From Marine Group I thaumarchaeote (GTDB lineage: Archaea; Thermoproteota; Nitrososphaeria; Nitrososphaerales; Nitrosopumilaceae): a stretch of DNA of 20,218 nt. The stretch spans positions 556,577 to 576,794 of the forward strand of contig CP054849.1 in NCBI GenBank assembly GCA_044358425.1, given 5' to 3'. Made by a program: the position numbers and the translations under genes. Within the stretch, counting starts at the first letter, position 1. Every line of letters begins with the position of its first letter. Under the pieces are notes generated by a model, which was not told where the DNA came from, made no database searches, and saw nothing but the letters and a program-made list of their open reading frames with translations. Below, in pieces: positions 4,092 to 19,999 of this stretch.

Positions 4092-4793
4092 ATGAAATTT
4101 AATTATCTTCTAATTGTTACAGTAGTTTCAATTTTCACTATTTCTGCAGTAGGTCAATCTGTTTATGGATATGGTGGTCCTCCTGAAAATAATAGTGCAA
4201 ATAATTATACTGTTGAAATTAATACTAATCAGGAATCTTACTTGCTAGGTGAATCTATTATTTTTTCAGGTTCTGTAAACAAATATGATGAGGATCGTTC
4301 TTTGAGAATCACTATTTTTGATTCTAGTAAAAATTTAATCAGTACTAAAAAGACACCTGTAGATACATATGGTAAATTCTCTCACTCTGTTGAATTAAAT
4401 GAAAAATTTTCTGATGGGAAATTTATAGTAAAGGCTCAATATGGTAATTCTAAATCAACTGTAAACACTTCATCATTTTTAATTGTCTCTGGAAATTCTT
4501 CCACAATGGAATCTAGTAATGAAATCCCTGTTTGGATTAAAAACAATGCAGGCTGGTGGGCAGATGGTTCCATAGATGATTCTTCATTTGTTCAAGGAAT
4601 TCAATTTCTAGTTCAAGAAGGATTTATGAAAATTCCTATTACCCAACAAGGTGATTCTACTGGGAGTAATGAAATCCCTGTTTGGATTAAAAACAATGCA
4701 GGCTGGTGGGCAGATGGTTCCATAGATGATTCTTCATTTGTTCAAGGAATTCAATTTCTAGTTCAAGAAGGATTTATGAAAATTACAAATTAG
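4092..4793 (+). CDS. Secreted protein with an Ig-like domain and two C-terminal thaumarchaeal 'IPxWIKNNAGWW' modules
   Basis: N-terminal signal peptide, beta-rich middle, two identical IPVWIKNNAGWWADGSIDDSSFVQGIQFLVQEGFMKI modules. Confidence 0.85.
   Translation: MKFNYLLIVTVVSIFTISAVGQSVYGYGGPPENNSANNYTVEINTNQESYLLGESIIFSGSVNKYDEDRSLRITIFDSSKNLISTKKTPVDTYGKFSHSVELNEKFSDGKFIVKAQYGNSKSTVNTSSFLIVSGNSSTMESSNEIPVWIKNNAGWWADGSIDDSSFVQGIQFLVQEGFMKIPITQQGDSTGSNEIPVWIKNNAGWWADGSIDDSSFVQGIQFLVQEGFMKITN
4515..4784 (+). repeat. Exact 120-bp intragenic direct repeat (4515-4634 and 4665-4784, period 150)
   Basis: Both copies read agtaatgaaatccctgtttgg...gatttatgaaaatt. Confidence 0.93.
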
Positions 4794-8531: not shown

Positions 8532-8855
8532 TTAAGGGGTGACCTTCTCTAATTTTTCATGGATTTTGTCGTAATATCCATTTTGTTCCAATGCTGGAAC
8601 ATAAAATGTAGCAGATATTGTGTCACCCACTTTAGCTTGGCAGTTTTCTACAACTACTGAATGCCCTAGTGCTGATTCTCCTACACAGCCAATCTCAGTT
8701 ATTGCGATGACTTGTACATCCTCAGTAACTGATGTTGGGACAATGTTCCATGGTGTAATTGTAAGCACCAAGATTACTGCCGTAGCGATTGAAATTATTG
8801 CTAAGAATTTCAATACTGGTGGTTTTTGTTGTGTTGTCTGTTGCATTGTAACCAT
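8532..8855 (-). CDS. Membrane-anchored hypothetical protein with a small beta domain and two Cys
   Basis: N-terminal TM helix, beta-rich body; TATA box and operator motif upstream. Confidence 0.75.
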   Translation of the reverse strand: MVTMQQTTQQKPPVLKFLAIISIATAVILVLTITPWNIVPTSVTEDVQVIAITEIGCVGESALGHSVVVENCQAKVGDTISATFYVPALEQNGYYDKIHEKLEKVTP

Positions 8856-8902
8856 TTGTATTAGTACAACTTTTTATTTAAAATAGTGGTAAGTATTGAT
8901 TA

Positions 8903-8914
8903 TAGTGCTAAAAA
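8903..8914 (-). promoter_or_regulatory. Operator copy 1 (TAGTGCTAAaaa on +)
   Basis: Exact core, 48 nt from ATG 8855; TTAAATA on the minus strand at 8881-8875. Confidence 0.85.
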
Positions 8915-9041: not shown

Positions 9042-9470
9042 TCAAAACTGAATTCCCTTCATGCGCTTTGAATAGTCATAATGAAATATTTTTTTTGGTG
9101 TAATTTCAATTGCAATTTCATTTTTTGAATGACTTAGTAGAAATTTTGATAATTTAGATTCTTTATCTCCTAGATATTTTTTAATTAAAATTTTCAATAT
9201 TTCTGGACCCTTGGATGGTATGATTTTAACAGTTCCTTCACCTCGTGAGCCTTTGTATGGGGGTTGATCTGCTGCTATTTCAAATCCACACGTGGGTTTA
9301 TTTTCCAAGTAATGAATAATTTTTGCAGTTTTTTGTGTTGCACAATAGATTTTTCCATTTATGTCAATATACCATAATGAAATAATTGATGGAGCTCCAT
9401 TGGGTTTGATGAATCCTATTCTAATTGGTATCTTTGTATCTGGGGCTAACTCTCTTTCTACGTATTGCAT
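9042..9470 (-). CDS. Pyridoxamine 5'-phosphate oxidase-like (FMN/F420 split-barrel) protein
   Basis: RIGFIKPNGAPSIISLWY...IYCATQKTAKIIHYLENKP...PYKG.RGEG...IEITPKKIFHYDY pattern; GAGGT SD-like element before the ATG. Confidence 0.8.
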   Translation of the reverse strand: MQYVERELAPDTKIPIRIGFIKPNGAPSIISLWYIDINGKIYCATQKTAKIIHYLENKPTCGFEIAADQPPYKGSRGEGTVKIIPSKGPEILKILIKKYLGDKESKLSKFLLSHSKNEIAIEITPKKIFHYDYSKRMKGIQF

Positions 9471-9539
9471 TTAATTACCTCGCTAAGCAACAGACACTTT
9501 AATTTTTTTTTGTATATGAATAATTTCTAATATTTCCTA

Positions 9540-9551
9540 TAGTGCTAACAA
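9540..9551. promoter_or_regulatory. Operator copy 2 (TAGTGCTAACAA), centred between divergent promoters
   Basis: About 20 nt from TTCATATA (minus, 9520) and from TTAAAATA (plus, 9571); 49 nt from ATG 9600. Confidence 0.85.
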
Positions 9552-10307: not shown

Positions 10308-10490
10308 CTATTTTTTCTTGCTTCTAGGTTTTGTTCTTAACACTGCTTTGCAACAAATACATCTGACATCTTCGGAATCTAGAAAAATACCACAAAATGT
10401 GCAACGCTTTTGTCCTATCTCATACCTGATTTTATTAGGTACTGATTCAGCTTCATGTCTTTTGCATATGTTTCTACAAGTTCTACCCAA
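10308..10490 (-). CDS. Small Cys-rich (zinc-finger-like) basic protein
   Basis: CxxxC, CxxC and CICC, then LRTKPR; TTG start overlaps the tfb stop by 8 nt. Confidence 0.75.
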   Translation of the reverse strand: MGRTCRNICKRHEAESVPNKIRYEIGQKRCTFCGIFLDSEDVRCICCKAVLRTKPRSKKK

Positions 10491-11394
10491 CTTTTACATC
10501 TCCTATCTTGTTGACAATTTCTTTTCTTCTTTCTCTTATGGTCACAGCACTAATTCCTGATATTTTGGATATTTTTAGCTGTGATACTTTTTCAGCATTT
10601 GTTGTTGCGGCTAGATGTATTGCAGCTGCTGCCATAGCCATTGGATTTTTACTTGTGGATACGTGCTTTTTTGCACACATATCAAGTATTTTGAAGCTAA
10701 GTCTTTGTGTTTTTTCTGACAAAGTTAATCCCTTTGCGATTCTGGTGACAAATTCTGATGGTGTGTATGACTCAGGTGATATGTCCATCTCTTTTGCAAG
10801 GAATCTATATGTTCTTTGTAGAACTTTTTTCTTAATGTTTGCTGCATCAGAAATATCTTGTAGTGTTCTAGGTGTATCTGTAATTCTACATGTTGCATAA
10901 ATTGTAGCAGATAACATAGCTGCTGTTGATCTTCCTGCAAGTATTTTTCTTGCTGCAATTTTTCTAAACAAATATGCACTTTCTTCTACTACTGATTCAG
11001 GCAGACCTAGCTTTGAACTTATTGCATCAAGTAAAGTGAATGCTTTTTGAAATGATTTTGATGTCACAGCTGAGCGACTGTTTCTGTCCCACATTCTTAG
11101 TCTGTAAAACATTCGTCTGTTTTCTACTGACAGTGATTTGCCTGTCACGTCCTTATCTTTAGCTTCAATTAATGTAGACAGTCCCATGTCTATCATCTTC
11201 AAAGATCTTTTTGCTCCAACTCTTGAATTATTTTGATAATCTGCTGAACTTCCTCCTGACATTTCAGCACCTAAATCAATAATTGGTTCTGATGATACTA
11301 TTCCGCAGTTACTACATGCAATCTCCCCAGTATGTATGTCTGTAACTATTTCATGTTTCTTACAATTTTTTTGATGTACTAATTCAGTTAACAT
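10483..11394 (-). CDS. tfb: Transcription initiation factor B (TFB paralogue)
   Basis: Zn ribbon IVTDIHTGEIACSNCGIV, GLST, RLRMW, cyclin repeats with GRS...IYATCR...PRTL and ISAVTIRER. Confidence 0.95.
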   Translation of the reverse strand: MLTELVHQKNCKKHEIVTDIHTGEIACSNCGIVSSEPIIDLGAEMSGGSSADYQNNSRVGAKRSLKMIDMGLSTLIEAKDKDVTGKSLSVENRRMFYRLRMWDRNSRSAVTSKSFQKAFTLLDAISSKLGLPESVVEESAYLFRKIAARKILAGRSTAAMLSATIYATCRITDTPRTLQDISDAANIKKKVLQRTYRFLAKEMDISPESYTPSEFVTRIAKGLTLSEKTQRLSFKILDMCAKKHVSTSKNPMAMAAAAIHLAATTNAEKVSQLKISKISGISAVTIRERRKEIVNKIGDVKVG

Positions 11395-11442
11395 GATAAC
11401 TTTATGCTTTCATTTTATATAACAAATCAAAAAATTTTTTAC

Positions 11443-11454
11443 TAGTGCTAATAT
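11443..11454 (-). promoter_or_regulatory. Operator copy 3 (tfb promoter)
   Basis: TAGTGCTAA at 11443-11451, 49 nt from ATG 11394; TTATATA on the minus strand at 11422-11416. Confidence 0.88.
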
Positions 11455-11505
11455 CTCTAGTCATTAAAAATTATTTTCTACCTTTACCACTAGGAAATTG
11501 TGTTT

Positions 11506-11517
11506 TAGTTAGCACTA
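11506..11517 (+). promoter_or_regulatory. Operator copy 4 (TAGTTAGCACTA)
   Basis: Full consensus, 49 nt before ATG 11566; variant TTACCACTA at 11484-11492. Confidence 0.88.
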
Positions 11518-11565
11518 TTTACAAATTATTTTTGTATTTTTATCCAATGAATTTAACAGAAATTT

Positions 11566-11928
11566 ATGCCACATATTGTGTTGGATCGACAAATCAACCT
11601 CTTTGATTTCTCAATTTTGTTTAAACCATTATTTCAAAAATCTCCATTAATCAAAATTCATAAAATGTATGTTGATTCTGAAGGCTCTAATGCATTATTT
11701 TCAACAGTTGTAATAGATGATTCTCATCATGAATTCTTTATTCAAGTAATGACAAGTGATGAAAGAACTACAATTAGATTGCTCCCTATAACTGATCCAA
11801 AAAAGACTGATGCTGTAAAACAATCGTTAGCAAATTTATGTTTAGAAATACAAAGATATTATCCTGATATGAGAGTTATAAAATCAAATTTATGGGACTA
11901 CTTGAAAATCCCTATAACAAATGAGTAA
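11566..11928 (+). CDS. Hypothetical protein
   Basis: 120-aa ORF overlapping the next gene by 8 nt; no family recognised. Confidence 0.75.
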   Translation: MPHIVLDRQINLFDFSILFKPLFQKSPLIKIHKMYVDSEGSNALFSTVVIDDSHHEFFIQVMTSDERTTIRLLPITDPKKTDAVKQSLANLCLEIQRYYPDMRVIKSNLWDYLKIPITNE

Positions 11929-12367
11929 ATTCAATCTTGTTAAAAAAAGTAATCTTCATCGTGATTTAATTTTTAAAATTAGTACAGATGTTGAAAACTT
12001 TCATAACGTTATGCCTGAATATTTCAAATCATTAAAAATTATTCAAAATTCCTCAAATGAAAAAATAGTTTTAGAATCTATAGATTTTCTTGGTAGAAAA
12101 ATAGAAATTAAAACAAAACATGTGATTATTCCACCAAATTTACATGAGGTATTCATTTTAAATGGTCCTGCAAAAGGTACTTCTTTTATTGAAAAATACG
12201 AATCTAACCCAACTGGTACTGATATTTCTATCTCTGTTGATTTGAAATTAAATGGATTTTTAAAATTAATTCCATTCCTGAAATTATTATTGTTTAAGAA
12301 AATGAATTCGGTAATGTCTGAGTTTATTGTATGTGCTGAATCCTATTCAAAGTCTGTTTCAAAATAG
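11921..12367 (+). CDS. SRPBCC / START-like (polyketide cyclase family) protein
   Basis: 148 aa; IFKISTDVENFHNVMPEYFKS, ILNGPAKG, GTDISISVDL and a C-terminal helix. Confidence 0.75.
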   Translation: MSKFNLVKKSNLHRDLIFKISTDVENFHNVMPEYFKSLKIIQNSSNEKIVLESIDFLGRKIEIKTKHVIIPPNLHEVFILNGPAKGTSFIEKYESNPTGTDISISVDLKLNGFLKLIPFLKLLLFKKMNSVMSEFIVCAESYSKSVSK

Positions 12368-12376
12368 TTAGCACTA
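12365..12376 (+). promoter_or_regulatory. Operator copy 5 (AATAGT-TAGC-ACTATT when extended)
   Basis: Full consensus with 6-bp perfect arms (12363-12378); TTAAATA at 12397; ATG at 12425, 49 nt away. Overlaps the upstream stop codon. Confidence 0.9.
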
Positions 12377-12424
12377 TTAAATTAAGTTAGTCTCTATTAA
12401 ATAGAAAAATTATTGATTTTAGCC

Positions 12425-13771
12425 ATGAGTCCTCCAACCATTGTTATTGGTGCAGGCGTGGGTGGCTTGACTACTGGTGCTATTTTGGCAGAAAAAGGTC
12501 ATAGTGTGATGATTTTAGAAAAATCTTCAAAACTAGGTGGAAGAACTGCTGCAATGGAATACAAAAACCATATTTTGGATAATGGTTTTCACATAATGCC
12601 TTTTTACAAAAAATCAGCAATTTTTACAATTATGAAGAATTTGGGAATTGAATCTCGTTTGAAGCTTGCAAAAGTTGATGATATTGCATTTTATGCTGAA
12701 ACTGGTTTTCATATATATCCAAAAGGAATGGGTGATCTGTTAAAATTATCATTAATCCCATTTAAGAGCAGAATTAGACTTCTAAAACTATTATTGCCTT
12801 TAGCATTTTCATCTATGGAAAAAACAGAATCCTGGGATGATGTACCTTTGACTAAAATTACACATGATTTAGATGCTGACACAAATGCATTTTTTGAAGC
12901 AGTATGTATGTTAGCTTTTGCAGATACAGCTGATCATATTTCTTTAGGTGAATTTGCCAGAACCATTATTAGAGCAAATCCGTTTAAAGGTGGAACAAGT
13001 GAATTTGCTTATCCAGATGGAGGTGGCTATGATTCCATCTGTAAGGTTCTTGGTGAATATATTTTAGAAAAAAATGGTGATATTCAGACAAAACAATCTG
13101 TAAAAAAAGTCATTGTAGAAAATTCTAAGGTTACTGGAGTTATTGTAAAGGATTCTTCAAATTCAGAAAAACTTATTCCAACAAATTCTGTAGTGATTTC
13201 CTATCCTGCTTATACTGCATTGAATCAACTATTTGATGAAGATGTAATTGACAGAAAATTTGTTCAAAAAATTGATAAATTGAATAAGACTACTTCTGTA
13301 GTTGAAGTTCATTTTGCATTAAATTCTCAAATTGATACTCGTCAGGTAGTTTTTCCTGTTGGTGATAACTATGTCACAAAAGGTATTTTTTTCATATCTA
13401 ATATCACTCCCTCTGTATCTCCTAAAGGTGAGCATTTGATCATTGCAGGAACTCCTGTATTGCCTTCTGAAACTGAGGATTCTGAAAAAATTAAAAGTAT
13501 TGTGAGTAAAATGAAACAAGAAATATCGTCAATCTACCCGAAATTTGATTCTTCATTATTGTGGGAACGTCCAATGGCCTGGAAATTAGTTGAATCTGTA
13601 GTAAAGGAACCTGGAAAAGTTTGGAAATCAAAAATGCCTCATCAGATACCTGGAATTGATGGCTTATTTTTTGTGGGTGATTCAACTATTAGTTATGGAA
13701 TTGGAACTGACTCTGCTGCACACAGTTCTATTTTGTGTACTCCAAAAATTGAATCTTTTTTAAATTCCTAG
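12425..13771 (+). CDS. FAD-dependent oxidoreductase, phytoene dehydrogenase / amine oxidase superfamily
   Basis: VIGAGVGGL...ILEKSSKLGGR...LDNGFH; YPDGG; C-terminal IDGLFFVGD. Start placed at ATG 12425. Substrate unknown. Confidence 0.88.
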   Translation: MSPPTIVIGAGVGGLTTGAILAEKGHSVMILEKSSKLGGRTAAMEYKNHILDNGFHIMPFYKKSAIFTIMKNLGIESRLKLAKVDDIAFYAETGFHIYPKGMGDLLKLSLIPFKSRIRLLKLLLPLAFSSMEKTESWDDVPLTKITHDLDADTNAFFEAVCMLAFADTADHISLGEFARTIIRANPFKGGTSEFAYPDGGGYDSICKVLGEYILEKNGDIQTKQSVKKVIVENSKVTGVIVKDSSNSEKLIPTNSVVISYPAYTALNQLFDEDVIDRKFVQKIDKLNKTTSVVEVHFALNSQIDTRQVVFPVGDNYVTKGIFFISNITPSVSPKGEHLIIAGTPVLPSETEDSEKIKSIVSKMKQEISSIYPKFDSSLLWERPMAWKLVESVVKEPGKVWKSKMPHQIPGIDGLFFVGDSTISYGIGTDSAAHSSILCTPKIESFLNS

Positions 13772-14622
13772 TTAGTTAATGGTATTTTTCTAATAATTTT
13801 TGGAATCTCTTCTAAACTCATATCGCCTACCACATTACCCTCAAATTTTGGTGGGTTGTCTTGTTGTAATGCATATCCTCCGATTAAAATTGGTGTTTTA
13901 CAATGTTCTCTAATTTTTTTTGCTAGTCTTTGTCCTGCAGATACGTTATCTTCAATTGTTATTGAAATTAAAATTACATCTGGTTTTTTCATATTGATAA
14001 ATTCGATAATTGAGTCTGTTGGAATGGATGTTCCCATATTGAAAACTTTGAAACCTTTTATTGTAAGATATGTTTCCAACACATCACATCCCATGTGGTG
14101 CTCCTCTCCAACTGGTACGCATAACATTACTTTCTTTTTATTTCCTGTACCTGACACTTGATCCATGATAATTTTTACTAAGGTTTGTGCTACATTACTG
14201 GCAACATGTTCTGTTGCAATTGCTAATTTACCATTTTCCCAGTCTGAACCTATTTTGCTCATTACAGGTCTTAGAATCTTGTCAAAAAAGTCTGGTACAT
14301 TAAATATGTCCACGTAATTTTTATAAATTTTAATACACTCATCCAGGTTACCATCTGTCAATTTTTTAAATAATTGTTGTTTTGATTTTTTTGTCGCATC
14401 TTCTCTTTTTTTTATGTCTTCTGGATTATATGATGCCAAAACTGATAGGATTTTGGGATCATTTCTGAATTCTTCTGGAATGTCATCTTTTATTACTTCT
14501 GATGCTTTTCCTAGATATTTGACAATCTCCTGTTTTGATGTGCTCTTTTTTGAATCCCAGACACTTTTTACTAAATAGAGATATTGATCTGATTTGACTT
14601 TTTTAGCCCTAATGTAGACCAT
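13768..14622 (-). CDS. Cobalamin-binding regulator, CarH/LitR-like sensor domain with an atypical N-terminal domain
   Basis: W-ENGKLAIAT-EH (Wx9EH), GEEHHMG (ExHxxG), Rossmann tail ISIT...ILIGG. Start reassigned to MVYIRAKK (14622) because a TATA box and the motif occupy 14643-14682. Confidence 0.88.
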   Translation of the reverse strand: MVYIRAKKVKSDQYLYLVKSVWDSKKSTSKQEIVKYLGKASEVIKDDIPEEFRNDPKILSVLASYNPEDIKKREDATKKSKQQLFKKLTDGNLDECIKIYKNYVDIFNVPDFFDKILRPVMSKIGSDWENGKLAIATEHVASNVAQTLVKIIMDQVSGTGNKKKVMLCVPVGEEHHMGCDVLETYLTIKGFKVFNMGTSIPTDSIIEFINMKKPDVILISITIEDNVSAGQRLAKKIREHCKTPILIGGYALQQDNPPKFEGNVVGDMSLEEIPKIIRKIPLTN

Positions 14623-14670
14623 TAAAATTCCTAATTTTTTCGATATATAACTAATGGTAATCATGACTAC

Positions 14671-14682
14671 TAGTGCCAATCT
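14671..14682 (-). promoter_or_regulatory. Operator copy 6 (one mismatch, TAGTGCCAA), promoter of the B12-binding regulator
   Basis: 49 nt from ATG 14622; TTATATAT on the minus strand at 14650-14643. Confidence 0.8.
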
Positions 14683-14696
14683 CTTCTAAATTTAAT

Positions 14697-14708
14697 TTCT
14701 TAGCACTA
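14697..14708 (+). promoter_or_regulatory. Operator copy 7
   Basis: TTAGCACTA at 14700-14708; TTAAATA at 14729; ATG at 14757, 49 nt away. Confidence 0.88.
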
Positions 14709-14756
14709 GTACGAACTTGTGTTTTCGGTTAAATATCATAAATCAAAAATATTTTC

Positions 14757-14954
14757 ATGGCAGGAACAGAAGAACAAGAATGGGCTAACCTTCTTGCAGA
14801 AATCTTTGACAAACTTACACAAAAACACGCCGCAATTACTTATGAGTTTGACAATCTAGAAATGGCTGGTAAGATTATGAAAGATAAGCAAGTTGTCCCA
14901 ACTGGTACAGTTTCCCTAAGTGGAAAACTAACCATTACAGCAAAAGAAAAATAG
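14757..14954 (+). CDS. Small hypothetical protein
   Basis: 65 aa, first gene of a tightly packed three-gene operon. Confidence 0.8.
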   Translation: MAGTEEQEWANLLAEIFDKLTQKHAAITYEFDNLEMAGKIMKDKQVVPTGTVSLSGKLTITAKEK

Positions 14955-14955
14955 A

Positions 14956-15333
14956 GTGTGGTTGACAATGAAAGATTTTGATCTACCCGCCAATTTTTTA
15001 TCTTATCTAGATAAAGGTAAATTAAGCATCACATGCAATGATGAACCTACGATTAATTTTCGTGTTGAAGGAAGTACAAAAATTATAGATGTAATTGATA
15101 TTCCAATTAAAATAAATAAAATGCCTGGATTTCTAAAACAGCTTTCTGAAGCAAAAGAACTTGCAAAAGATTTGGCAAAGAAAAAAACAACTATTGAAGT
15201 ACGTTTGAAAGGTGATACTGTATTGAAACTAGGTGAAAAAGCAAATCCAAAATTAGCAAAAATTGTAACACGAAGTAGTGATATTGAAATCACTGACATA
15301 AGAAAATTGAAAAAATTGAGTGATGTATTTTAA
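14956..15333 (+). CDS. Hypothetical basic protein (start may be ATG 14968)
   Basis: ORF fills the gap between its neighbours with 1-2 nt spacing. Confidence 0.75.
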   Translation: MWLTMKDFDLPANFLSYLDKGKLSITCNDEPTINFRVEGSTKIIDVIDIPIKINKMPGFLKQLSEAKELAKDLAKKKTTIEVRLKGDTVLKLGEKANPKLAKIVTRSSDIEITDIRKLKKLSDVF

Positions 15334-15335
15334 AA

Positions 15336-16763
15336 ATGTCTGAACTTTCTACACAAACTAAACCCTACGATATTTTAGTTACTGGTGCAAGTGGTTTTAT
15401 TGGAAAAAAACTACTTAATCAATTAACTAATTCTGGATTTACTGTAACTGCAATGTCCAGATCAAAATACCCTGATTCAGAGAAAATCAAGCGTGTACAG
15501 GCTGATGCATTTGATGTTGATTCTTTAACTAAAGCTACTGAGGGAATTACAACTGCATTTTACTTACTTCATTCTATGGAAGGCTCAAAAAAGGAATGGG
15601 GTGAATTTGCAAATAGGGAAAAACAGCAGGCTCAAAATTTTCTTAAAGCTGCAACTGCATCTGGCGTAAAGAGAATCATATATCTCGGTGGATTAGTCAA
15701 CGAAGGTCTAGAATTATCAAAACATATGAAAAGTAGGCATGATGTGGGCAAGATTTTGGCAAGTGGAAATATTCCTGTCACTGAATTAAGAGCATCTGTT
15801 ATTGTTGGAGCTGAAGGTGGTTCTTATGCCATGCTTAGATATCTTGTTGAAAGATTACCTTTGATGGTTTGTCCAAAATGGGTTAAATCACAAACACAAC
15901 CAATTGCAGTTGAAAATGTTGTGGATTATTTGATAGGTTCGATGAAAAATCCAGAAACTACAGGAAAAATTTTAGAAATTGGTGGACCTGATATCATGAC
16001 ATATGAACAACTAATGAGATTATACTCTTCCATTCTCAATAGAAATCTAACCGTAATTCAGATTCCATTTTTGACCCCTAGACTTTCTTCTTATTGGATT
16101 GATTTAGTTACTCCAGTTAAAGCCTCTCTAGCAAGACCTCTAGTTGATAGTTTAGTACATGATTCTGTAGTTAAAGATGATACAGCACAAAAATTGATTC
16201 CAATTCAATTGGCACACATGACTCAAGCAATTCAAACTGCTAGAGAAGAAGCAAAAGTTTTCAACTCCATTTCTAAATCAGAGGGAGAAAAAACTTCGTA
16301 TAAAATGAATCAACAAATTCTTCTAATTACTTTATGTGCCATGGCTTTCATTGGTACAACATACTATTGGTTGGATGATCGAAGTGATGTTTGGCAGATT
16401 ACTTGGATAGTTGGTTCCGTAATTTGGTATGCTTCAATTTTATTTGCTATTTCATTTGTGAGACAAAAAGCCAGGTTGGGTTATTTGATAGGTGGAATTT
16501 TGGCTTGGGTTACTCTGGCATTTTGGTTATTTGATAACTTTCATGTTGTATTTGAGCTCTCATTGGTCGCATCTGAACCTAGTTTGGAAATTACAATTAG
16601 AAATTTCATTGGTGCAGCAATTGCTGGATTGGCTATATTCTCCTCACATAATGTATTTCATAAAGTACGAGTTTACCAAGCCCGAGGAAAACCTGTATCT
16701 GAATCTGCCTCTTCAGAGGTGCCTGAAGGTGCTAGACCGGTTTATAATACTGACTTTTCATAA
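15336..16763 (+). CDS. YbjT-like atypical SDR / NAD(P)-dependent epimerase fused to a four-TM C-terminal domain
   Basis: ILVTGASGFIG, YLLHSM, IIYLGGL, LSKHMKSR, TQPIA, TPRLSSYW; about four hydrophobic helices after residue 325. Confidence 0.85.
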   Translation: MSELSTQTKPYDILVTGASGFIGKKLLNQLTNSGFTVTAMSRSKYPDSEKIKRVQADAFDVDSLTKATEGITTAFYLLHSMEGSKKEWGEFANREKQQAQNFLKAATASGVKRIIYLGGLVNEGLELSKHMKSRHDVGKILASGNIPVTELRASVIVGAEGGSYAMLRYLVERLPLMVCPKWVKSQTQPIAVENVVDYLIGSMKNPETTGKILEIGGPDIMTYEQLMRLYSSILNRNLTVIQIPFLTPRLSSYWIDLVTPVKASLARPLVDSLVHDSVVKDDTAQKLIPIQLAHMTQAIQTAREEAKVFNSISKSEGEKTSYKMNQQILLITLCAMAFIGTTYYWLDDRSDVWQITWIVGSVIWYASILFAISFVRQKARLGYLIGGILAWVTLAFWLFDNFHVVFELSLVASEPSLEITIRNFIGAAIAGLAIFSSHNVFHKVRVYQARGKPVSESASSEVPEGARPVYNTDFS

Positions 16764-16977: not shown

Positions 16978-17499
16978 TTATTTTTGATTTTCTAAAATTT
17001 TGAATATATTTCCATTTGCTGGATTAGAATATAGTAGAAAGTATGTTTGTCCGGCAAGATATGTTTTATTAAATCTGAATACTATTGGATGAATTTCTGC
17101 AAGGATTTCTCCGACTGTGATTGTTTCATTTTTATAATTTTTTAATAAATCAAAAAATTTGTCTCTTTCTAGATGAGTAAACTCCTTGGAAAAAAAACCA
17201 AAAATATGCATTATTACGTTGCTATGTGTTTTGATTGTAGGTTTAAACTGTAAACATAAACTGAGATTTTTTTCATACTCTACTAACATTTCTGAAAATT
17301 TTACTTTTTTATTACTGGCCACAATCCTGCCTAATACTTTGAGTTCTTCTTGATTGTGAGCCATAATCAAAAACTTATTCATTGCTTGAAATTCAACTAA
17401 TTCCTTTATTTTGTTACTTTTTTTTACGTTTTGAAATCTTTCTAGAACAAATTCTTTGATTTCTTTTTGAGTTAACACTTTGTGATAGTTTTGCATCAT
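16978..17499 (-). CDS. YbgA family (DUF1722) protein, stand-alone
   Basis: NKFLIMAHNQ...LGRIVA...THSNVIMHIFGFFSK...YLAGQTYF matches the DUF1722 pattern as I recall it. Confidence 0.8.
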   Translation of the reverse strand: MMQNYHKVLTQKEIKEFVLERFQNVKKSNKIKELVEFQAMNKFLIMAHNQEELKVLGRIVASNKKVKFSEMLVEYEKNLSLCLQFKPTIKTHSNVIMHIFGFFSKEFTHLERDKFFDLLKNYKNETITVGEILAEIHPIVFRFNKTYLAGQTYFLLYSNPANGNIFKILENQK

Positions 17500-17580: not shown

Positions 17581-17592
17581 TTGTTAGCACTA
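17581..17592. promoter_or_regulatory. Operator copy 8 (TTGTTAGCACTA)
   Basis: About 20 nt from minus-strand TTTATATG (17562-17555) leading to the ybgA-like gene. Confidence 0.83.
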
Positions 17593-17604
17593 TATTTTTT
17601 GAAA

Positions 17605-17616
17605 ATATTAGCACTA
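17605..17616 (+). promoter_or_regulatory. Operator copy 9
   Basis: TTAGCACTA at 17608-17616; TTAAATA at 17637; ATG at 17666, 50 nt away. Confidence 0.88.
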
Positions 17617-17665
17617 GAAAATGATTTGGCACCATTTTAAATATAATTAGTGAAATTTGTTTATA

Positions 17666-18613
17666 ATGAAAACTCTCATGACTGCAATTTCAACAATTGC
17701 CGTATTGCTGCTTGTTGGCTCAAGTGTATCATCAGTTTACGCTGATGTTCCAGCTTGGGTTAAGAACAATGCAGGCTGGTGGGCAGAAGGAACGATTGAT
17801 GACGATTCATTTGTTCAAGGAATTCAATTCTTGATCAAAGAAAAAATCATGGAAATTCCTCCAACCACACAAGGAGTAAGTTCTAGTAATGAAATCCCAT
17901 CCTGGATTAAAAACAATGCAGGCTGGTGGGCAGAAGGAACGATTGATGACGATTCATTTGTTCAAGGAATTCAATTCTTGATCAAAGAAGGAATCATGAA
18001 AGTATTACCTGAGCAAGCTAGTGATGTAGCAAAAGCTGCTACTGAAAAGGCATTTGCTAAAAAGGAACAAAAATCCATATCATCAAGCGATGACCCTGTA
18101 ATTGCTTCTCTTGAAGCTGAATTAGAGAAATGTTCAGAAATAGTCAAAGCATACAAGAGACTTGATTGTGAAAAACCAATTAAACAAGAAATTCTTGTTC
18201 ATACATACAAAACTGGCGCTGAATTAATGCAAGTAGGACCAATTAATTATTATTGGTTTGGTGTAAATTCTGAGGGTAATAGCTTTGAAATTAGTCCTAC
18301 AGGACAACCAATTTTGAATATCAGAATGTTGGCCGATAACACTTCTTCAGATATTGTTAGTTTGAATTGTACAAGTCCTTCAATTTGTAACTATGATGTT
18401 TGGGACGGTTCAAAATCCTTCAAATATTCTGGAATGGACTTTACTAGTGGACAAATCAATCTAAACCCTGGAACTGCTAAGGAGTTCAATATTTTGTTTG
18501 GTCCAAATATTGGATATGGTGGAACTGAATTTGAATATGATCCTTCAAAGACATATACTTTCAGAATCAATGAACCATTTGGTAGTATGGATGTTCACCT
18601 AGACTTAGAATAA
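17666..18613 (+). CDS. Secreted protein with two 'PxWxKNNAGWW' modules and a Cys-containing C-terminal beta domain
   Basis: Signal peptide ending VYA; two modules; C-terminal domain paralogous to the next gene. Confidence 0.85.
   Translation: MKTLMTAISTIAVLLLVGSSVSSVYADVPAWVKNNAGWWAEGTIDDDSFVQGIQFLIKEKIMEIPPTTQGVSSSNEIPSWIKNNAGWWAEGTIDDDSFVQGIQFLIKEGIMKVLPEQASDVAKAATEKAFAKKEQKSISSSDDPVIASLEAELEKCSEIVKAYKRLDCEKPIKQEILVHTYKTGAELMQVGPINYYWFGVNSEGNSFEISPTGQPILNIRMLADNTSSDIVSLNCTSPSICNYDVWDGSKSFKYSGMDFTSGQINLNPGTAKEFNILFGPNIGYGGTEFEYDPSKTYTFRINEPFGSMDVHLDLE
17765..17989 (+). repeat. Exact 78-bp intragenic direct repeat (17765-17842 and 17912-17989)
   Basis: aacaatgcaggctggtgggcagaaggaacg...ttgatcaaagaa occurs twice, period 147. 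Confidence 0.9.
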
Positions 18614-18658: not shown

Positions 18659-18670
18659 TAGTTAGCACTA
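18659..18670 (+). promoter_or_regulatory. Operator copy 10 (TAGTTAGCACTA)
   Basis: Full consensus; TTATATA at 18691; ATG at 18719, 49 nt away. Confidence 0.9.
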
Positions 18671-18718
18671 TTGATTACTAGTTCTATTTTTTATATAATT
18701 AAAAAAGTAAAAAATTTC

Positions 18719-19999
18719 ATGAATCTTTTATTTTTGATCATCCCTTTACTCGTTTTTTCAATTCCAATGGTTTTTGCTGAATCCTCTAACGTTGGTACTA
18801 TGTATTGGAAGCAAGAAATCATTTCACCAAATTCGTTTGTTGATATCTATGTAAATGATAATGATATGAATAAAAAAGAATATCCAAATTTTGCTGATAA
18901 ATTTATGATATCTATATGGTCTGATTCTTCTCCAAATGGTCTTGAAATCCAAGTTGTAGAGACAGGAGTTTACAGTGGTATTTTCAAAGGTCGTGTGTTT
19001 GTTGCTGATTCTGGTGAGACCGTAAAAAATAGACTGGTTTCAATGCCTGGTGATACTGTATATGCAAAATATGTTGATTTTACAATGCCAGATGGCTCGA
19101 CATCTGAAATATTCTCAGCTGCAGTTGTAAAAATATCTGGTCAAAATATGCAGCCATTACTTGACAATATAGATTCAAAATACCGCATGTCTTCATCTAT
19201 TGAAAAAGTTCCATCATGGATTAAAAATAATGCAGGCTGGTGGGCAAATGATGACATTGATGATGATGCTTTCATTCAAGGTATTCAGTTTTTAATTAAA
19301 GAAAAGATTCTTGAAATAAATGAAACCTCATCTACAGAAAAAAGTGATAAAATTCCTGCTTGGGTAAAAAATAATGCAGGCTGGTGGGCAGAAGGCCAAA
19401 TCACTGAATCTGATTTTCTTAGTGGGATTACACATCTTGTAAAAACTGGAATAATTTCTGTTAGTGATGATTCTGTTGAATTAGTTTCTGATGATGTCGA
19501 TCCTTTACTGGCTGAATGTCAATCGATTAAATCTACATACAAGCGACTAAATTGTGAAAAGGAAATAAAACAAAATCTTGAATTTATAGAATTTAAAAAA
19601 TCTTCAAATGAATACGGTGTAGGTCCAATCACTTACTATTATCCTGGAATTGGAAATTTTGGAAATGAGTTTGAAATCAGTTCTTCTGGTCAAGCTATGT
19701 TGAGATTAAGAATTTTAGCTGAAAATACCGGCAATGAAGTAATTTCATTAAAGTGTACAGGTCCATCTATCTGTAGTTATGATGTTTGGGATGGTTCAAA
19801 GGCATTCAAATATGCTGGCATGGATTTTGTGTCTGGTCAAATCCCAATAAATCCTGGAACCTCTGTTATTTTTAACATGATGTTTGGTCCGAATATTGGA
19901 TATGGTGGAAATCAATTTGAATATGATTCTTCAAAGAATTATACTTTTAGAGTTAATGAAAACTTTGGAAGCATTGAAATTCCATTAAAAATTGAATGA
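18719..19999 (+). CDS. Secreted protein with an S-layer-type Ig-like domain, two NNAGWW modules and the shared C-terminal domain
   Basis: Signal peptide ending VFA; VNDNDMN...ETGVYSGIFKG...GDTVYAKYVD. Start reassigned to ATG 18719. Confidence 0.85.
   Translation: MNLLFLIIPLLVFSIPMVFAESSNVGTMYWKQEIISPNSFVDIYVNDNDMNKKEYPNFADKFMISIWSDSSPNGLEIQVVETGVYSGIFKGRVFVADSGETVKNRLVSMPGDTVYAKYVDFTMPDGSTSEIFSAAVVKISGQNMQPLLDNIDSKYRMSSSIEKVPSWIKNNAGWWANDDIDDDAFIQGIQFLIKEKILEINETSSTEKSDKIPAWVKNNAGWWAEGQITESDFLSGITHLVKTGIISVSDDSVELVSDDVDPLLAECQSIKSTYKRLNCEKEIKQNLEFIEFKKSSNEYGVGPITYYYPGIGNFGNEFEISSSGQAMLRLRILAENTGNEVISLKCTGPSICSYDVWDGSKAFKYAGMDFVSGQIPINPGTSVIFNMMFGPNIGYGGNQFEYDSSKNYTFRVNENFGSIEIPLKIE

Follow-up and report, generated by a model that had tools for sequence, protein, structure and literature searches.

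Marine ammonia-oxidizing archaea are inhibited by light. Does the locus described here encode a light sensor of such an organism and, if so, which genes would it control? The DNA analyzed (the window) is a stretch of 20,218 nucleotides from a Marine Group I thaumarchaeote of the family Nitrosopumilaceae (assembly GCA_044358425.1, contig CP054849.1, positions 556,577 to 576,794), and the gene in question occupies positions 13768-14622 of the window on the minus strand. The host genome is a single contig of 1.36 Mb, and its closest protein relatives in the databases carry the name Nitrosopumilus. The window is AT-rich, with a GC content of 0.28 to 0.33. An original prediction, made from the sequence alone, had proposed that the gene encodes a CarH-type photosensor domain fused to a putative DNA-binding domain of a kind other than MerR. 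Our analysis suggests that the product is a one-component, B12-based photoreceptor transcription factor of ammonia-oxidizing archaea, and we put the probability of the full mechanism set out below at roughly 0.55.

The B12-binding module and the N-terminal head

The candidate gene and its predicted domains are as follows.

13768..14622, minus strand: regulator candidate gene, ATG at 14622, 284 amino acids (aa), stop codon included
14425..14622, minus strand: residues 1-66, basic beta-sheet domain, putative DNA-binding head (delimited from an AlphaFold2 [AF2] model, conservation and hhalign)
14167..14379, minus strand: residues 82-152, four-helix-bundle subdomain, PF02607 (E 1.7e-10, above the Pfam gathering score)
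13864..14130, minus strand: residues 165-253, Rossmann-type B12-binding subdomain, PF02310 (E 3.6e-11, above the gathering score)

By its motifs and modeled fold, the C-terminal part of about 200 residues is a CarH-type adenosylcobalamin (AdoCbl)-binding module, and AdoCbl binding is predicted. The classic B12-binding motif has been given as E/DxHx2Gx41SxV/Tx22-27GG, and the form ExHx2Gx41SxV/Tx22-27GG together with Wx9EH is reported to define CarH homologues (PMC8156234, cited here and below for part of its text). In the candidate protein, the four-helix bundle carries G125xxW128x9E138H139 (W..EH at nucleotides 14206-14241), while E173xH175xxG178 (nucleotides 14089-14106), G197xxxP201, S220xT222 and G248G249 were found in the Rossmann-type subdomain. 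The spacing is E173-E-H175-H-M-G178, x41, S220-I-T222, x25, G248-G249. Both motifs on which the original prediction was built, Wx9EH and ExHxxG, are therefore present in the C-terminal region. Likewise, the GxxW, EH, GxxH and GxxxP signature of light-responsive B12 domains described with SignatureFinder (PMC11796333, also cited for part of its text) is complete, as G125xxW128, E138H139, G172xxH175 and G197xxxP201.

These residues are well kept in the family. In an alignment of 21 members, G172, H175, G248 and G249 were invariant, and W128, E138 and H139 were retained in 20, the exception being a paralogue encoded in the same genome. The Gly of GxxxP is replaced by Ser in some relatives. Among the matches listed from the profile search described below, GxxWx9EH was kept in 38 of 44 full-length (250-330 aa) head-bearing representatives and the following GxxH in 37 of 44.

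An AF2 model of the full-length protein, built on 21 relatives, reached a predicted local distance difference test score (pLDDT) of 85.4. Its best structural matches in a Foldseek search of the PDB were photoreceptors, namely photocobilin 8j2x (6.7e-13; 8j2w similar) and Thermus thermophilus CarH (TtCarH) 5c8a (1.5e-12), and many TtCarH entries at about 1e-12 followed the photocobilins in the ranking. The order by plain sequence similarity (phmmer against the PDB) was photocobilin (1.8e-10), a trimethylamine corrinoid protein (2.9e-10, the third-best hit), CtMerR (7e-10), CarH (1.2e-8) and MetH (1.8e-7).

The head consists, in the AF2 model, of three long antiparallel strands (residues 2-9, 12-23 and 28-39) and a short helix (residues 56-65), predicted with a pLDDT of about 90 in the full-length model and 87.9 when folded alone. 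Residues 1-40 contain 10 K/R versus 3 D/E. No MerR, other helix-turn-helix (HTH) or other Pfam family matched residues 1-80 at E values up to 10, apart from two chance-level hits (E about 0.06). The N-terminus is thus basic, three-stranded by prediction and unlike MerR, as had been proposed. It is also the best-conserved part of the protein, with 18 positions invariant in 21 sequences whose identity is otherwise 34-75%.

When 1.84 billion representative proteins were searched with a profile of residues 1-70, 414 matches were obtained at E values up to 0.001. The 150 matches listed comprised 44 proteins of 250-330 aa, 104 shorter ones (many of them probably fragments) and 2 longer ones. The head profile matched a 526-aa protein (P0250) that scores 215 bits on NF033559, the IS1634 family transposase model (cut-off 100), and contains PF01609. 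The head was also N-terminal in three HNH endonucleases and an AbiEii nucleotidyltransferase, and it occurred in a group of 160-185-aa proteins whose C-terminal part belongs to no known family. Some head-bearing proteins are assigned by their source names to Diapherotrites, Woesearchaeota and Thermoplasmatota. In a sample of the phylum (E up to 1e-4), the head was present in 28 of 43 genomes of the host family and in none of 257 genomes from 47 other families.

The original prediction had noted a likeness to the N-terminal segment of IS1634 transposases. When a profile of 18 relatives of the transposase P0250, collected and aligned, was compared with that of the head, hhalign returned a probability of 98.6% (E 1.1e-15) over 55 columns, N-terminus to N-terminus, with 36% identity; this likeness was therefore confirmed as homology. 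The motif common to both is M-x-[YF]-[IV]-R-x-K-...-Y-x-Y-L-V-x-S-x-W-D-...-R/K-Q-...-Y-L-G. Of the further suggestion that the domain was borrowed from a mobile element, the homology to IS1634 N-termini stands, and either lineage may have been the donor. In the literature on IS1634 transposases we found no description of this N-terminal segment.

The combination of a CarH-type B12 module with a head other than MerR had been put forward as a new architecture. This is borne out by the retention of GxxWx9EH in most full-length head proteins listed and by the partners of light-responsive B12 domains named in the text of a survey (HTH, DGC, BBD [bilin-binding domain], GAF and MEDS; PMC11796333), among which this head does not appear; the figures or network of that survey might show such a cluster. 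The anticipated risk of misannotation is also real, as public sources name members of the family 'methanogenic corrinoid protein MtbC1' (JGI) or 'cobalamin-dependent protein'. Our literature search found no description of this protein, nor of a CarH-type or other light sensor or a light regulon in ammonia-oxidizing archaea. We regard the protein as a candidate CarH-like photoreceptor with a new head, in archaea.

Conserved boxes and the predicted regulon

The promoter of the candidate gene contains three elements.

14670..14679, minus strand: box A, TTGGCACTAG, at -57 from the ATG; mean of 1.80 bit/position over 23 distinct promoters
14651..14660, minus strand: box B, TTACCATTAG, at -38, abutting the TATA-like box at the position of the B recognition element (BRE); mean of 1.34 bit/position
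14644..14650, minus strand: TATA-like box TTATATA, 22-28 nt before the ATG

We extracted the 220 nt upstream of the gene at 28 loci, namely those of this window, of the paralogue in the same genome and of 26 relatives. The layout shared by 23 distinct promoters was TTAGCACTAG at -57, a 9-nt spacer, TTAGCATTAG at -38 and then TTATATA or TTAAATA. The information content was 1.80 bit/position in box A, 1.34 in box B and 0.99 in the TATA-like box, versus 0.33 in the spacer and 0.23 and 0.16 in the flanks. Conserved boxes amid an unconserved spacer and flanks point to a footprint and not to general conservation. The candidate's own promoter thus has two direct 10-bp boxes, 19 bp apart from start to start, the second on the BRE position. 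The layout was missing at five loci: the paralogue (L002), L023, L028, L029 and L033, the last of which has a variant with one extra base. At 14 of the 28 loci, oppositely oriented boxes were found 87-151 nt upstream, facing the divergent gene. An inverted repeat in the window (14668-14679/14700-14711) could be taken for a palindromic operator. It is better read as two boxes facing divergent promoters, because the boxes in relatives keep their place relative to each TATA box and not relative to each other.

The boxes also bear on the gene model. The open reading frame (ORF) at 13768-14622 encodes 284 aa plus a stop codon, with an N-terminus identical to that quoted in the original prediction. 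Of the 120 closest relatives in the databases, more have this length than any other, and the 21 aligned family members align from the MVY start. A 303-aa reading from a TTG at 14679 and the 298-aa database start (14 codons upstream, between box A and box B; window 14623-14679), which is probably wrong, were rejected because the boxes and the TATA-like box would become coding sequence. The short distance between the TATA-like box and the ATG (22-28 nt) suggests that the mRNA is leaderless or nearly so.

Contigs from four marine RNA-library runs (three studies), 95-100% alike, covered the gene body (from 13400 to 14523 or 14604) and also the divergent operon, where coverage began at 14768 or 14810. 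Such contigs indicate presence in the libraries, in which DNA can be present, and neither transcript ends nor levels can be read from them. The region between the divergent genes (14606-14739) was covered by no contig in the four runs, a gap that is not informative on transcript ends. Rfam and tRNA scans of the window gave no match.

The box recurs throughout the window and the genome. The pattern TTRSCAYTAG had 38 hits in the genome, versus about 5 expected from base composition, and 19 of the 38 were noncoding (17 by crude gene calls plus 2 in the overextended regulator frame), versus about 8% of the genome. We also built a position weight matrix (PWM) from the relatives only, leaving out the promoter in this window, and used the reversed genome and five third-order Markov genomes as controls. 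At 15 bits or more, the matrix gave 25 hits, versus 3 in the reversed genome and 7-12 in the Markov genomes. Nine of these 25 strong hits are inside the 20-kb window, which makes up 1.5% of the genome. About 17 promoters in the genome share the same phasing, with the box, 19 nt, a TATA-like box, about 22-25 nt and the ATG. In the window, about a dozen promoters carry the box, among them the following.

14700..14709, plus strand: divergent box A, TTAGCACTAG, 57 nt before the ATG at 14757, with the TATA-like TTAAATAT at 14729-14736
14757..16763, plus strand: divergent putative target operon (65-aa ORF, 125-aa ORF and a 475-aa protein resembling NmrA/short-chain dehydrogenases/reductases [SDR])
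12368..12377, plus strand: box TTAGCACTAT before the gene for a flavin adenine dinucleotide (FAD)-dependent oxidoreductase, 12413-13771
11442..11451, minus strand: box TTAGCACTAG, 57 nt before the start of a transcription factor B (TFB) gene, 10483-11394 (minus)
11484..11518, plus strand: two boxes, TTACCACTAG at 11484 and TTAGCACTAT at 11509, 82 and 57 nt before gene 11566-11928
17584..17617, plus strand: two boxes, at 17584 and 17608, before gene 17657-18613
18662..18671, plus strand: box TTAGCACTAT before gene 18671-19999, probably 57 nt from an internal ATG at about 18719
8902..8911, minus strand: box TTAGCACTAT, 56 nt before gene 8532-8855, with a box-like 10-mer, TTACCACTAT, at the place of box B
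9539..9548, minus strand: box TTAGCACTAT before gene 9042-9470

The promoter of the regulator itself has a conserved box B, and a box-like 10-mer occupies this place in one further promoter, that before 8532-8855. The 475-aa NAD(P)-binding protein of the divergent operon has a hydrophobic C-terminal half. The product of 12413-13771 is a flavoprotein of the amine-oxidase/phytoene-desaturase superfamily, whose gene ends tail-to-tail with the regulator gene. The boxes at 11484 and 11509 precede a pair of small genes (11566-12367), and those at 17584-17617 lie within a divergent region shared with a DUF1722 (YbgA-like) gene (16978-17499, minus). The product of 17657-18613 had no Pfam match above the cut-off. 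Elsewhere in the genome, boxes precede small genes of no known family at 246-248 kb, an FtsX-type permease gene and a cluster at 811-814 kb.

Three further observations concern genes of the window. The TFB paralogue at 10483-11394 matches PF00382 (E 3.6e-33) and scores 254 bits on NF001658, below the cut-off of 384; its box is perfect, so that the predicted light regulon may have a basal transcription factor of its own. The 65-aa ORF (14757-14962), which has no Pfam or Rfam family match, reached a k-mer depth of about 2,100-5,100 in contigs of two RNA-library runs, versus 118-230 for the contig of the next genes. Within the predicted regulon, it may give rise to a small transcript or protein of very high abundance, although contig depth is a poor measure of expression. 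Finally, the predicted secreted proteins encoded at 4092-4793, 17657-18613 and 18671-19999 have in common a repeated segment of some 35 residues (…IP.WIKNNAGWWA.G.IDD..F..GIQFL…); the promoters of two of the three genes carry boxes.

The cluster at 811-814 kb links the box to photorepair. It contains a photolyase gene (812498-813841; PF00875, 130 bits; TIGR03556, E 1e-108, below the cut-off) immediately downstream of a 186-aa gene that has a box 57 nt before its start; a further box lies ahead of the following gene. The second photolyase gene of the genome has no box. In a sample of 61 genomes of the family, the head was present in 25 and a photolyase in 7. The regulator was found in 6 of the 7 genomes with a photolyase versus 19 of the 54 without one (Fisher p 0.016, a value that is overstated because the genomes are kin), and the lone photolyase genome without the regulator is 72% complete. 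In five of the six genomes with both genes, boxes lie within about 700 nt upstream of the photolyase gene or operon; three photolyase loci (L050, L052 and L056) have no boxes. In one relative (L054), the regulator gene, which has a box at about -57, ends 2 nt before the photolyase gene.

Furthermore, the box tracks the regulator gene across these genomes. In the 25 genomes that have the gene, exact TTAGCACTAG occurred 113 times and the reversed control word 34 times; in the 36 genomes without it, the counts were 85 and 84 (Mann-Whitney test on box counts, p about 1e-3). The SDR gene was found in four of five regulator-bearing versus none of five regulator-less genomes tested. Among 27 loci of relatives, we found beside the regulator gene the SDR gene in 14, the FAD-dependent flavoprotein gene in 6, DUF1722 in 4 and TFB in 3. 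In one genome of the same genus (G060:C1:1500189-1500391; L032), the orthologue is cut by a TAA stop after about 33 residues, followed by a 101-aa frame, and looks like a pseudogene or a sequencing error.

Proposed mechanism and alternatives

We propose that the beta-stranded head reads the 10-bp box TTAGCACTAG, which precedes the TATA box by 19 nt and the start codon by about 57 nt. If the protein behaves like CarH, it would, once loaded with AdoCbl, form oligomers in the dark, occupy the boxes and hinder TFB and the TATA-binding protein (TBP). On exposure to UV-to-green light, the Co-C bond would be cleaved and the oligomer loosened, and the promoters would be freed. At the regulator's own promoter, box B covers the BRE position, so that bound protein should exclude TFB, giving autorepression. 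At single-box promoters, the site would lie about 10 nt upstream of the expected BRE, and a large anchored oligomer could still block the preinitiation complex. The regulon would form a small accessory "light island" comprising the regulator, the TFB, the SDR/NmrA-like membrane protein, the phytoene-desaturase-like flavoprotein, the DUF1722 protein and several small proteins of no known function, with the photolyase operon outside the island. As the fixed phasing of single boxes suits an activator equally well, the protein may either repress or activate these promoters.

Several findings weigh against this reading. At a lower PWM threshold (at least 13 bits), the excess of boxes is weak, with 53 hits versus 26 in the reversed genome and 31-41 in the Markov genomes. 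In most target promoters, one box stands alone at a constant distance upstream of the BRE and TATA box, an arrangement that suits an activator, or an element read by another factor such as the island TFB, at least as well as a repeat site bound by a repressor. No photolyase hit was obtained in the 19 genomes with the regulator noted above, and four regulator-less genomes have raised box counts relative to the control word (8 versus 4, 6 versus 2, 6 versus 1 and 6 versus 4). The p-value for the box counts is overstated, as the genomes compared are kin. The island also seems to be gained and lost as a whole, which weakens the argument from the co-occurrence of box and gene. In the B12 module, Glu follows W128 where TtCarH has His. 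That His becomes the upper axial ligand after photolysis (PMC8156234), so the bis-His light adduct of TtCarH could not form in the same way here and the light state would differ. The NCBIfam CarH equivalog NF052513 gave 55 bits against a cut-off of 400, with alignment of the B12 module only, and the corrinoid-protein model TIGR02370 scored about the same (53.5 bits; cut-off 215.3). The protein is thus outside the curated CarH equivalog despite its CarH-type motifs and fold. In plain sequence similarity, moreover, the trimethylamine corrinoid protein ranks between photoreceptors.

The head itself also lacks a significant fold match. Foldseek found nothing below E 0.7 in the PDB or below E 0.1 in BFVD, so that of the AlphaFold and Foldseek check proposed in the original prediction, the three strands were confidently predicted while no known fold was matched. 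The best VIA-align score over 48,161 chains was Z 4.8 (PSRP-3, bS16), below the meaningful level. The head profile had 0 matches to PDB sequences at E up to 10, an ESM Atlas feature search with the head gave scores of 0.80 only, which is chance level, and a search of PHROGs returned a single match (E 0.077). No known fold is assignable to the head, and fold novelty is not thereby demonstrated. As no solved fold was matched, we infer putative DNA binding by the head from its company (transposase, HNH), its charge and the boxes.

The box might instead be read by another factor, either the island TFB or an unrecognized regulator. The B12 protein would then be a member of the regulon that acts via protein contacts (as AerR does on CrtJ) or on RNA, and its head would bind protein or RNA. 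A lone box whose distance from TATA is constant does resemble a promoter element, the island TFB gene carries the box itself, and the weak structural neighbors of the head bind RNA or single-stranded DNA (PSRP-3 and bS16, Z 4.1-4.8; PC4, Z 2.7; none significant). However, the head sits where transposases and HNH nucleases carry DNA-recognition modules. In addition, the doubled and most conserved box pair occurs, among the promoters inspected, almost only at the regulator's own promoter, as autoregulation predicts, and box enrichment tracks the presence of the gene, though gain or loss of the whole island weakens that last point. Overall, we regard this explanation as unlikely. A second possibility is that the protein senses cobalamin supply, redox or ligand state and tunes genes to B12 status in a B12-producing archaeon. 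The module would bind B12 whatever the signal, the His next to Trp of the TtCarH light state is missing, most predicted targets are proteins of no known function, and many genomes have the regulator with no photolyase hit. Nevertheless, most listed representatives retain Wx9EH, which caps the adenosyl group, the gene co-occurs with photolyase genes, and the regulon proteins scanned include no recognizable B12 synthesis, transport or B12-dependent enzyme, while a photolyase operon is present. A role in sensing B12 status in place of light therefore appears quite improbable.

A third reading, that of a corrinoid carrier of a methyltransferase system (MtbC/MttC/MtaC-like), is implied by the JGI name and favored by the TIGR02370 score and the rank of the trimethylamine corrinoid protein among PDB sequence hits. 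This is the weakest rival, and we rejected it as very improbable. All corrinoid-protein models scored far under their cut-offs (TIGR02370, as above; MtbC, 43 versus 350 bits; MtaC, 42.3 versus 420), Wx9EH is present and ExHxxG begins with Glu. No methyltransferase family was found among the 11 window ORFs scanned, and neither the extra conserved N-terminal domain nor the autoregulatory box layout has a role in a carrier.

If a light-responsive regulator is indeed encoded here, the sensor, the chromophore, the DNA site (TTAGCACTAG, 19 nt upstream of TATA) and a regulon of about 17 promoters, including the photolyase operon and a dedicated TFB, would all be named. The light sensitivity of marine nitrifiers, known for a long time, would become approachable at the molecular level, and archaeal and synthetic biology would gain a new, compact DNA-binding switch that responds to green light. 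In addition, a function would be assigned to a widespread small beta domain without a Pfam family, found at the N-terminus of IS1634 transposases and other nucleic-acid enzymes, and two database names, 'corrinoid protein MtbC1' and 'cobalamin-dependent protein', would be corrected. The broader claim is that this would be the first photoreceptor transcription factor in ammonia-oxidizing archaea and the first B12-based one in any archaeon, that its DNA-binding fold, previously uncharacterized, would also occur in IS1634 transposases, HNH nucleases and DPANN proteins, and that it would stand atop a light-stress circuit comprising a photolyase operon, membrane or flavin oxidoreductases and a TFB of its own; we consider it an even bet.

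Comparison with known systems

The IS1634 transposases (NF033559) are related to the candidate through the head, to which about their first 55 residues are homologous. In contrast to them, the 284-aa protein has no DDE domain (PF01609) and no NF033559 match. As the catalytic domain is missing, the regulator candidate is not a transposase.

The photocobilins (8J2W/8J2X) and the MerR-CBD protein of Chloracidobacterium (8JBS) are the best sequence and fold matches of the B12 module and share its GxxW, EH, GxxH and GxxxP signature. Their output modules are different, namely a bilin-binding domain and a MerR HTH, respectively.

The in-genome paralogue (G000:C1:815950-816813; L002:1468-2331, minus; 287 aa) is 34% identical to the candidate overall and 56% in the head. 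Its neighbors are a gene with a MEDS domain (PF14417, E 4.6e-7) and one with a winged helix (PF14947), and the photolyase cluster with its boxes is 2-3 kb away. With its W and EH missing, its ExHxxG retained and the same head as the candidate, it resembles CarA of Myxococcus xanthus. CarA is without Wx9EH, which is said to explain its B12 independence (PMC8156234). The promoter of the paralogue has no box.

The closest parallel is CarH or class I LitR (T. thermophilus, PDB 5C8D/5C8E/5C8F; M. xanthus; Bacillus megaterium), repressors that depend on AdoCbl and are released by light. In CarH, an AdoCbl-dependent tetramer binds direct repeats over the promoter in the dark, and light dissolves the tetramer (PMC8156234). 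Both defining motifs of these proteins are present here, and CarH is among the best structural matches of the AF2 model. Short boxes, paired in direct orientation at the candidate's own gene, lie beside the core promoter elements of that gene and of photoprotective genes and may parallel the CarH operator, and there is a genomic link to photolyase. The differences are in the head, which is a MerR winged helix in CarH and a three-stranded beta domain without a Pfam family here, and in the absence of His after Trp and the low score on the NCBIfam CarH model (55 versus 400 bits). Furthermore, the CarH operator consists of three or four tandem 11-bp repeats (PMC8156234), while the boxes here measure 10 bp and most of them stand alone. 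As the host is an archaeon, the predicted target would be a TATA/BRE promoter and not one dependent on sigma-A.

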